A stretch of 64,000 nucleotides of DNA, taken from Enterobacteria phage vB_EcoM_IME340. The stretch lies in the sequence record MH051916. One strand, 5' to 3'. The notes beneath the pieces are model-generated. The model saw nothing but the letters and a program-made list of their open reading frames with translations. It made no database searches and was not told the origin of the DNA. This document shows, piece by piece, positions 2,629 through 3,456 of this stretch. Position 1 is the stretch's first letter, and each line of letters opens with the position of its first letter. The position numbers and the translations under genes were made by a program.

Positions 2629-2701
2629 TGGGAATTAGCCAAGTTGGTAAGGCACTGGATTTTGATTCCAGGATGCAAAGGTTCGAGTCCTTTATTCCCA
2701 G
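2629..2701 (+). tRNA. tRNA-Gln (anticodon UUG), CCA not encoded
   Basis: Manual fold: acceptor TGGGAAT/ATTCCCA, anticodon stem CTGGA/TCCAG with loop TTTTGAT, T-loop GGTTCGAGTCC. Confidence 0.8.
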
Positions 2702-2702
2702 C

Positions 2703-2789
2703 GCGAGAATGGTCAAATTGGTAAAGGCACAGCACTTAAAATGCTGCGGAATGATTTCCTTGTGGGTTCGAGTCCCACTTCTCGCACCA
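2703..2789 (+). tRNA. tRNA-Leu (anticodon UAA), long variable arm, CCA encoded
   Basis: Acceptor GCGAGAA/TTCTCGC, anticodon loop CTTAAAA, T-loop GGTTCGAGTCC, 3' ACCA. Confidence 0.8.
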
Positions 2790-2794
2790 AATTT

Positions 2795-2868
2795 GCGGAT
2801 ATCGTATAATGGCATTACCTCAGACTTCCAATCTGATGATGTGAGTTCGATTCTCATTATCCGCTCCA
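2795..2868 (+). tRNA. tRNA-Gly (anticodon UCC)
   Basis: Acceptor GCGGATA/TATCCGC, anticodon loop CTTCCAA, T-loop GTTCGATTC, 3' TCCA. Confidence 0.8.
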
Positions 2869-2878
2869 ATTTAATTTA

Positions 2879-2952
2879 CTCCGTGTAGCTCAGTTTGGTA
2901 GAGCGTCTGCTTTGGGAGCAGAATGTCGCAGGTTCAAATCCTGCCGCGGAGA
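2879..2952 (+). tRNA. tRNA-Pro (anticodon UGG), CCA not encoded
   Basis: Acceptor CTCCGTG/CGCGGAG, D-arm GCTCAGTTTGGTAGAGC, anticodon loop TTTGGGA, T-loop GGTTCAAATCC. Confidence 0.8.
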
Positions 2953-2954
2953 CT

Positions 2955-3044
2955 GGAGGCGTGGCAGAGTGGTTTAATGCACCGGTCTTGAAAACCGGCA
3001 GTCGCTCCGGCGACTCATAGGTTCAAATCCTATCGCCTCCGCCA
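2955..3044 (+). tRNA. tRNA-Ser (anticodon UGA), long variable arm
   Basis: Acceptor GGAGGCG/CGCCTCC, anticodon loop CTTGAAA, T-loop GGTTCAAATCC, 3' GCCA. Confidence 0.8.
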
Positions 3045-3049
3045 GTTTT

Positions 3050-3125
3050 GCTGATTTAGCTCAGTAGGTAGAGCACCTCACTTGTAATGAGGACGTCGGC
3101 GGTTCGATTCCGTCAATCAGCACCA
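3050..3125 (+). tRNA. tRNA-Thr (anticodon UGU)
   Basis: Acceptor GCTGATT/AATCAGC, D-arm GCTCAGTAGGTAGAGC, anticodon loop CTTGTAA, T-loop GGTTCGATTCC, 3' ACCA. Confidence 0.8.
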
Positions 3126-3126
3126 A

Positions 3127-3201
3127 GGCCCTGTAGCTGGAAGGTTCAAGCAAGCGACTCATAATCGCCAGATGGTGGTTCAATTCCACCCAGGGCCACC
3201 A
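3127..3201 (+). tRNA. tRNA with CAU anticodon (Ile2/lysidine type as in T4, or Met-like)
   Basis: Acceptor GGCCCTG/CAGGGCC, anticodon loop CTCATAA, T-loop GGTTCAATTCC, 3' ACCA; T4 carries an Ile tRNA with this anticodon. Confidence 0.7.
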
Positions 3202-3210
3202 AATTAATTT

Positions 3211-3297
3211 GGGGAGTTATCCCGTAGAGGTAGCGGTGTGGACTGTAAATTCATTGTCATTGCGACTCGGGTGGTTCGACTCCATCACTCCCCACCA
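3211..3297 (+). tRNA. tRNA-Tyr-like (anticodon GUA), class II with long variable arm
   Basis: Acceptor GGGGAGT/ACTCCCC, anticodon stem GTGGA/TTCAT with loop CTGTAAA, T-arm GGTGG-TTCGACT-CCATC, 3' ACCA; D-stem is only 3 bp so the call is less secure. Confidence 0.55.
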
Positions 3298-3301
3298 ATT
3301 T

Positions 3302-3376
3302 GGATGTGTAGCTCAATGGCAGAGCGATCGCCTGTTAAGCGATTGGTTATAGGTTCGAATCCTATCACGTCCGCCA
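3302..3376 (+). tRNA. tRNA-Asn (anticodon GUU)
   Basis: Acceptor GGATGTG/CACGTCC, D-arm GCTCAATGGCAGAGC, anticodon loop CTGTTAA, T-loop GGTTCGAATCC, 3' GCCA. Confidence 0.75.
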
Positions 3377-3380
3377 AATC

Positions 3381-3456
3381 CGAGGCATAGCTCAGAAGGA
3401 AGAGCAAGGACCTTCTAAGTCCTAGGTCGTAGGTTCGATCCCTACTGCCTCGACCA
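3381..3456 (+). tRNA. tRNA-Arg (anticodon UCU)
   Basis: Acceptor CGAGGCA/TGCCTCG, D-arm GCTCAGAAGGAAGAGC, anticodon loop CTTCTAA, T-loop GGTTCGATCCC, 3' ACCA. Confidence 0.8.

Follow-up and report, generated by a model that had tools for sequence, protein, structure and literature searches.

Ten tRNA genes occupy positions 2629–3456 on the plus strand of the 64-kb window (the whole stretch of DNA analysed, from Enterobacteria phage vB_EcoM_IME340), and ARAGORN detects none elsewhere in it (Table 1). Nine of the ten are also recovered by the Rfam tRNA model (RF00005) at its gathering score, with 59–74 bits and E-values of 1e-10 to 1e-14; the top scorer in the array is tRNA-Asn (74.1 bits). The spacers between consecutive genes, from Gln to Arg, measure 1, 5, 10, 2, 5, 1, 9, 4 and 4 nt. 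Counted from the discriminator base, a 3′ CCA is encoded in eight genes and missing from those for Gln and Pro. An earlier interpretation made without database searches (the sequence-only reading) had described ten tRNAs with these isotypes and anticodons, spacers of 1–10 nt and the lack of an encoded CCA in Gln and Pro; ARAGORN returns the same coordinates and identities, and the measured spacing and CCA count bear the description out. A permissive-E Rfam search of positions 2400–4400 yielded nothing beyond tRNAs. Matches to Plastid-ycf2, sX4 and YrlA were rejected as tRNA look-alikes, lying on the opposite strand or spanning two tRNAs, far below thresholds.

Table 1. Features of the tRNA region, with coordinates in the window.
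Feature	Coordinates	Strand	Detection	Remarks
tRNA-Gln (UUG)	2629..2701	+	ARAGORN; RF00005, 67.4 bits	No encoded CCA; 1 nt to tRNA-Leu; 89% identical to T4 tRNA-Gln
tRNA-Leu (UAA), class II	2703..2789	+	ARAGORN; RF00005, 59.3 bits	CCA encoded; 100% identical to T4
tRNA-Gly (UCC)	2795..2868	+	ARAGORN; RF00005, 63.3 bits	CCA encoded; 98.6% identical to T4
tRNA-Pro (UGG)	2879..2952	+	ARAGORN; RF00005, 70.2 bits	Full CCA lacking (CU follows); 2 nt to tRNA-Ser
tRNA-Ser (UGA), class II	2955..3044	+	ARAGORN; RF00005, 62.6 bits	CCA encoded (TAA there in T4)
tRNA-Thr (UGU)	3050..3125	+	ARAGORN; RF00005, 73.5 bits	CCA encoded; 98.7% identical to T4
CAU-anticodon tRNA, most likely tRNA-Ile (AUA reader)	3127..3201	+	ARAGORN (label Met); RF00005, 59.9 bits	CCA encoded
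tRNA-Tyr (GUA), class II	3211..3297	+	ARAGORN; below RF00005 threshold	CCA encoded
tRNA-Asn (GUU), canonical	3302..3376	+	ARAGORN; RF00005, 74.1 bits	CCA encoded
tRNA-Arg (UCU)	3381..3456	+	ARAGORN; RF00005, 68.1 bits	CCA encoded; no BLAST match from T4 tRNA-Arg
116-aa ORF, phrog_3355 (function unknown)	3473..3823	+		Separates tRNA-Arg from the stable RNAs
Homologue of T4 stable RNA rnaD (NC_000866 label)	3823..3933	+		77.8% identity
Homologue of T4 stable RNA rnaC (NC_000866 label)	3941..4079	+		97.8% identity; tRNA-like T arm
Intrinsic-terminator-like hairpin (4130–4153; 10 pairs, 7 G-C) and T run	4130..4163	+		Kept in T4 and Elenatom

The array is followed by a small ORF, two stable RNA homologues and a hairpin. 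We infer that the 116-aa ORF is one of the two ORFs of the T2L tRNA region (trna.1/trna.2); a PHROGs search of the flanking ORFs matched only families of unknown function. Within the rnaC homologue lies a weak tRNA-Sec-like match (3986–4078; 17.3 bits in a permissive Rfam search). The hairpin at 4130–4163 probably marks the end of the tRNA and stable-RNA transcription unit.

Relationship to the tRNA regions of T4 and T2L

Among phage records, 959 match the 1.4 kb that surrounds the array, and 272 of these contain at least 80% of the region. The best match over this length is Escherichia phage 132 (Tequatrovirus; 99.2%), where the same ten tRNAs are annotated. In T4 (NC_000866) the corresponding region reads Gln-Leu-Gly-Pro-Ser-Thr-Ile-[segB]-Arg-rnaD-rnaC. 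Its tRNAs number eight and include neither a Tyr nor an Asn gene, in agreement with the sequence-only reading. The two loci share their position downstream of trna.2-like ORFs, the order of the first six genes (89–100% identity), the stable RNAs and the terminator. On alignment, near-identity extends from upstream of Gln through Thr, homology stops about 20 nt into the CAU tRNA and it restarts at rnaD. Between these points T4 carries segB where the window has the Tyr and Asn genes, and the Ile and Arg genes of T4 show no sequence relationship to their counterparts, giving no BLAST match in the window. Encoded CCA also differs, being absent from the Ser and Ile genes of T4 and present in both genes here.

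The arrangement is that of T2L. The tRNA region of that phage lacks segB and contains tRNA-Met/Ile, Tyr, Asn and Arg genes with two ORFs (Brok-Volchanskaya et al. 2008, PMC2330249). The window has the same T2L-type order, Gln-Leu-Gly-Pro-Ser-Thr-CAU-Tyr-Asn-Arg, without segB and with a small ORF and two stable RNAs behind it; it shares with T2L the CAU, Tyr, Asn and non-T4 Arg genes after the first six, and the small ORFs followed by two stable RNAs (PMC2330249). Compared by the published description, no difference of substance was found. The window Tyr gene is also 100% identical to the Tyr gene of a phage T2 record. The layout is therefore already known, having been printed for T2L in 2008 and annotated in hundreds of public genomes, and the novelty implied by the sequence-only reading falls away (PMC2330249). 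As a discovery the array carries little weight: it is the T2 form of a textbook-style T-even tRNA operon.

The CAU tRNA is labelled Met by ARAGORN and in many records, and it occupies the place of the AUA-reading tRNA-Ile of T4. Its best matches in E. coli genomes are annotated tRNA-Ile genes (81.6% identity). Judged from these matches and the T4 position, it is most likely an AUA-reading tRNA-Ile with a modified C34.

The tRNA-Asn gene is canonical. In T2L the corresponding gene is reported as the preferred cleavage site of SegB (PMC2330249). The SegB-associated motif RAWTSGAAC is present in the window tRNA-Asn at 3353–3361 and also in the Gly and Thr genes and the rnaC-like RNA, and it shows no significant enrichment over the whole window (9 matches against 6.3 expected). 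Four of the nine matches fall in the tRNA and stable-RNA region. For the PARIS nuclease AriB, E. coli tRNA-Asn(GUU) is reported to be a secondary target, cut at U36AAUC↓C41, and T5 tRNA-Asn helps to rescue infection (PMC12409363). The window tRNA-Asn reads U36-A-A-G-C-G41, differing from the E. coli AriB target at positions 39 and 41; that these differences confer resistance to AriB is speculation. The literature search found no experiment on any T-even tRNA-Asn.

Architecture of the tRNA-Tyr gene

The Tyr gene is absent from the RF00005 list at the gathering threshold (29 bits), and in a permissive Rfam search its best match within the clan is tRNA-Sec (29.9 bits against a cut-off of 47). Public records disagree about it, some giving 'tRNA-Pseudo-GTA' or 'tRNA-OTHER' and others 'tRNA-Tyr'. 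The failed threshold and these labels uphold the claim of the sequence-only reading that the gene is structurally unusual. A Sec-like reading, with an acceptor of 8–9 bp or a D stem of 6 bp, was rejected on inspection of the alignment by eye, the extra pairs being kept in few sequences only.

The peculiarity lies in the D arm. The D stem drawn by ARAGORN consists of U-G, C-G, a C-C mismatch and C-G, and places a G at the position of A14, a residue that is near-universal in tRNA. If the register is shifted by two bases on the 5′ strand, a 4-bp stem forms between CCGU (3222–3225) and GCGG (3233–3236), closing a 7-nt loop, AGAGGUA, that has A14, G18-G19 and A21. This stem leaves a connector of 4 nt, UAUC (3218–3221), rather than the canonical 2 nt (positions 8–9). 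The connector is 5 nt long in IME523, CF1 and ESCO13, all three of which ARAGORN misses. For the window Tyr sequence, the shifted cloverleaf is 6.7 kcal/mol better than that of ARAGORN. The 3-bp D stem of the sequence-only reading thus matches the three pairs that ARAGORN sets around the C-C mismatch, but comparison across the family favours the shifted CCGU/GCGG stem.

The molecule has a 7-nt anticodon loop with U33 (CUGUAAA), a T loop of the UUCGA type (GGUUCGACUCC), the D loop AGAGGUA and an A-CCA end; the anticodon stem is weak, with two G-U pairs. The identity set of E. coli TyrRS comprises the GUA anticodon, a long variable arm, G1-C72 and A73. All of these are found both in the window gene, whose variable arm likewise contains a stem, and in E. 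coli tyrU, and by its sequence features the gene fits a bacterial class II tRNA-Tyr. The phage gene also has the same 20-nt length from acceptor to anticodon stem as the E. coli tRNA-Tyr genes (tyrU, tyrT/V), which share its class II form. Within that length the E. coli tRNAs have a 2-nt connector, a D stem of 3–4 bp and a long D loop, whereas in the phage tRNA the connector measures 4 nt and the D loop 7 nt; its variable arm is 2 nt longer. The long variable arm, which the sequence-only reading had counted as an oddity, is therefore none, since E. coli tyrU, at 53.4 bits, carries such an arm too; the real oddity is the connector of 4–5 nt.

Support for the cloverleaf comes from the Tyr family. 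Homologues were gathered from annotated phages and by a pattern scan of viral contigs without a D-arm constraint, and 30 distinct sequences were aligned. In these, which derive from unrelated phage genera, the cloverleaf with the shifted D stem is paired in 98.9% of cells, and two-sided changes occur at 16 of 24 pairs, in every helix. None of 500 shuffles matched the pairing and covariation values, and slid controls gave 44–56%. The variable stem covaries at all three of its pairs. Pairing across cells reaches 100% for the shifted D stem. The standard register of ARAGORN reaches only 61.7% and was rejected on this count and because one of its pairs is never formed. The selection pattern for the family fixed parts of the D arm, and the invariance of the D stem is in part a product of that construction; the other four helices are unaffected. 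The sole independent compensatory change in the D stem is C-G to U-A, in two sequences.

A decaying Tyr gene, a pseudogene or remnant from which no working tRNA is made, is very improbable. Such a reading can draw on the score below the Rfam threshold, the 'tRNA-Pseudo-GTA' and 'tRNA-OTHER' labels, the two G-U pairs of the anticodon stem and a minimum-energy fold that is not the cloverleaf (-27.3 against -24.6 kcal/mol; z-score -0.65). Since that minimum-energy fold is an alternative structure, folding the single sequence is uninformative about whether Tyr is tRNA-like. The low Rfam score loses its force through controls with the same tRNA model: E. coli tyrU (53.4 bits), IME523 (39.1) and Roth66 (33.6) pass, but the Tyr genes of T6, FelixO1 and a T5-like phage fall below 29 bits, as the window gene does. 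Since working genes of T6 and the T5 family also fail, failure of the generic model says nothing about function within the phage tRNA-Tyr lineage. It is the 4–5 nt connector of this lineage, in place of 2 nt, that makes the gene look pseudogene-like to generic tRNA models. Against decay stand the compensatory two-sided changes in every helix, the intact anticodon loop, T loop, discriminator A and CCA, and the T6 gene, a single nucleotide apart, whose product shows on northern blots and rescues infection (PMC13096335). The remnant or regulatory RNA entertained in the sequence-only reading is contradicted by the covariation and by the T6 and T5/SP15 experiments (PMC13096335; PMC11555353; PMC12673091). 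A covariance-model score below threshold, named in the sequence-only reading as grounds for refuting its Tyr and Asn calls, is formally the case for Tyr (Asn scores 74.1 bits), but it is uninformative given that the validated T6 and T5-like genes fail as well.

More generally, a phage tRNA-Tyr that is both widespread and functional goes under-reported by generic covariance models and by the 'pseudo' calls of tRNAscan-SE, and censuses of phage tRNAs and codon studies that drop 'pseudo' tRNAs consequently miss it. A limited literature search found no description of the connector or of the 'pseudo' call, which is not evidence of novelty.

The tRNA-Tyr lineage and tRNA-targeting nucleases

The window Tyr gene matches 1335 records, with identities of 98.9% to T6, 95% to rV5-like phages and 83–85% to T5-like phages and FelixO1. 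The lineage is common to T2/T6-like, rV5-like, FelixO1-like, T5-like, Phapecoctavirus, Klebsiella, Serratia and Enterococcus phages. The single difference from T6 converts a T-stem G-U pair into G-C in that phage, and the window variable arm (UGUCAUUGCGACUCG) is identical to that of the T5-like phage X5. By sequence, the gene belongs to the T6/T5/SP15 lineage of counter-defence tRNA-Tyr.

Several members of this lineage have been characterized experimentally. The tRNA-Tyr of T6 is visible on northern blots, and T6 is rescued from Septu by overexpression of this tRNA or by SegB-aided amplification of its gene, and sensitized by deletion of the tRNA region (Chihara et al. 2026, PMC13096335). T4, with segB but without tRNA-Tyr, cannot escape Septu (PMC13096335). 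SP15 and T5 tRNA-Tyr neutralize Retron-Eco7, and an anticodon change in the SP15 gene abolishes rescue (Azam et al. 2024, PMC11555353); a longer variable loop is needed against this retron (PMC12673091). In all, plating on Septu or Retron-Eco7 hosts has been restored by the tRNA-Tyr of T6, T5, SP15 and KpP_HS106 (PMC13096335; PMC11555353). The near-identity to the T6 gene and the covariation of the lineage together argue that the window tRNA-Tyr is a real, working phage tRNA.

T6 tRNA-Tyr is reported to be relatively unstable and is itself cut by Septu (PMC13096335), and its protection would therefore be by dosage, not by resistance to cleavage. Its instability fits the non-cloverleaf minimum-energy fold of the window RNA, which has the same variable arm and GUC↓A cleavage-site context as T6. 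In contrast to this T6-type RNA, reported as cleavable by Septu, SP15 tRNA-Tyr has been shown to resist cleavage by Retron-Eco7. T5 and SP15 share with the window the extended connector and a CCGU/GCGG-type D stem (83% identity for T5-like genes), but belong to a different phage family and have different acceptor and anticodon stems. T6 itself departs from the window in genomic context: its tRNA-Tyr adjoins segB, the driver of tandem amplification. The window cluster has no segB, so escape by T6-type amplification is not available in cis. It is unlikely that the lineage has a truly non-canonical core (the 4–5 nt acceptor-to-D connector and short D loop) which, with the longer variable arm, evolved to alter nuclease recognition while keeping recognition by TyrRS.

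Alternatively, the chief role of the Tyr RNA might be to sequester a tRNA-targeting nuclease, as a tRNA-like decoy or inhibitor, instead of decoding. Overexpression of T6 tRNA-Tyr partly protects host tRNA-Tyr from degradation, while the phage RNA is itself cut by Septu (PMC13096335), and inhibition by viral tRNAs is raised as a possibility for AriB (PMC12409363). This is nevertheless quite improbable, as the anticodon dependence of SP15 rescue means that decoding is needed (PMC11555353), rescue is also achieved by E. coli tRNA-Tyr from a strong promoter, and the full set of tRNA-Tyr features is kept (G1-C72, A73, GUA anticodon and CCA).

Codon demand and the role of the array

Codon usage was compared between 72 long, mechanically called ORFs of the window (15,438 codons) and the annotated genes of a 49-kb E. 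coli K-12 sample. Tyr codons number 42.8 per 1000 in the window against 20.5–27.2 in the E. coli sample (a ratio of 1.6–2.1), and Asn codons 55.6 against 32.7–42.1 (1.3–1.7). The sequence-only reading had pointed to this comparison, and both codon families are indeed commoner here, by 1.3–2.1 times. Codon demand thus independently favours both extra tRNAs.

It could be asked whether demand suffices, with the Tyr and Asn tRNAs being kept only for the heavy UAU and AAU use of an AT-rich phage and having no anti-nuclease role. The codon ratios speak for this, as does the lack of a segB adjoining the Tyr gene to amplify it, unlike in T6. Yet Lys, Phe and Asp codons are enriched to a similar degree and no tRNA for them is carried in the window, and relatives add a tRNA-His despite His codons not being enriched (0.78–1.04 times). 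GUN anticodons are common to the tRNAs for Tyr, Asn and His; a link to colicin-E5-type nucleases was considered and is not claimed. The near-identical T6 gene and T5-family genes, moreover, measurably counter PtuAB systems (PMC13096335; PMC11555353). Codon compensation as the whole explanation is accordingly rather unlikely.

The reading preferred here, which we hold to be very probable, is that the locus is the segB-less tRNA operon of a T2-like Tequatrovirus, in which Tyr and Asn are functional decoding tRNAs and Tyr also serves against nucleases. The ten tRNA genes, the small ORF and the two stable RNAs, lying head to tail, would presumably form one transcript that ends at the 4130–4163 hairpin. 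By analogy with established T4 biology, this transcript would be cut by host RNase P and 3′-end enzymes, and the 3′ ends of Gln and Pro completed by the host CCA-adding enzyme. Eight genes correspond to those of T4 and read A-ending codons, with Tyr(GUA) and Asn(GUU) sitting at the place of T4 segB. These two likely enlarge the pools of decoding tRNAs during infection, serving codons used 1.3–2.1 times as often as in the host sample. Given the near-identity to T6, tRNA-Tyr would in addition sustain translation when PtuAB (Septu, Retron-Eco7) cuts the variable loop of host tRNA-Tyr. Carriage of tRNA-Tyr predicts, by analogy with T6, some tolerance of PtuAB-type defences such as Septu and Retron-Eco7, and is relevant to the choice of therapeutic T4-like phages.

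Identity, fold and annotation of tRNA-Tyr

The tRNA-Tyr genes of T2-like myoviruses such as IME340 and of the unrelated rV5-like phages (Vequintavirus; rV5_ev156) share 94-95% identity, and the copy in the window shares 83-85% identity with those of FelixO1 and T5-like phages. Identity of this order points to the gene having been exchanged among phage families. Some of the 95% matches belong to records named 'Campylobacter phage', which look mislabelled or contaminated.

Within the anticodon stem, the window carries a U that produces a second G-U pair, whereas phage 132 (the closest full record) and SP1 have a C at the matching position and thus a G-C pair. 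With the U in place, the lowest-energy structure is something other than a cloverleaf (-27.3 kcal/mol, vs -24.6 kcal/mol for the cloverleaf). A 5-nt connector between the acceptor and D stems (UAAUU or UAUUU) occurs in the tRNA-Tyr of Enterobacter phage IME523, Citrobacter phage CF1 and Escherichia phage ESCO13 (L006, L007 and L008; positions 41-128). ARAGORN does not detect these three 5-nt-connector genes at all, and the site is unannotated in several of the records; phage tRNA-Tyr is therefore under-annotated in public genomes.

Positions of the features discussed, in window coordinates
Feature	Position	Remark
tRNA-Gln anticodon-stem changes	2663-2674	alignment A1 (window region vs T4), columns 137-152
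CCA of tRNA-Ser	3042-3044	
Left boundary of T4-divergent segment (within CAU tRNA)	3146-3210	
CCA of CAU tRNA	3199-3201	
tRNA-Tyr	3211-3297	
U in tRNA-Tyr anticodon stem	3251	
Junction matching the tRNA-His insert	3377-3380	Elenatom (L003) 1375-1567
116-aa ORF	3473-3823	phrog_3355; between tRNA-Arg and stable RNAs
Start of first stable RNA	3823	right boundary of T4-divergent segment
tRNA-Sec-like match	3986-4078	17.3 bits; within T4 rnaC homologue
T arm of rnaC homologue	about 4056-4066	

The T4-divergent segment and its surroundings

The segment that differs from T4 begins about 20 nt into the CAU tRNA and ends at the first stable RNA. The left boundary lies inside a tRNA gene, where one would be expected had the T4 allele been shaped by SegB-driven gene conversion. 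The 116-aa ORF is kept in relatives, whereas T4 lacks it at the corresponding place. Further downstream, the tRNA-Sec-like match in the rnaC homologue is weak and includes a tRNA-type T arm, GGTTCGAATCC, which also fits the SegB-associated motif.

Many close relatives, including Escherichia phage Elenatom, carry approximately 190 additional bases between Asn and Arg, comprising a 117-nt spacer and an eleventh tRNA annotated as tRNA-His. The insert is absent from the window and from phage 132, and the window shows no enrichment of His codons, at 0.78-1.04 times their frequency in a 49-kb E. coli K-12 sample.

The tRNA-Gln stem and encoded CCA ends

The tRNA-Gln anticodon stem reads CUGGA/UCCAG in the window and UAGCA/UGCUA in T4. 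The changes are paired, affecting both strands, and are compensatory in a gene that is otherwise near-identical. The Ser and CAU tRNAs encode CCA in the window, whereas in T4 TAA follows Ser and Ile lacks a CCA. Given these encoded ends, IME340 should need host 3'-end repair of this pair of tRNAs less than T4 does.
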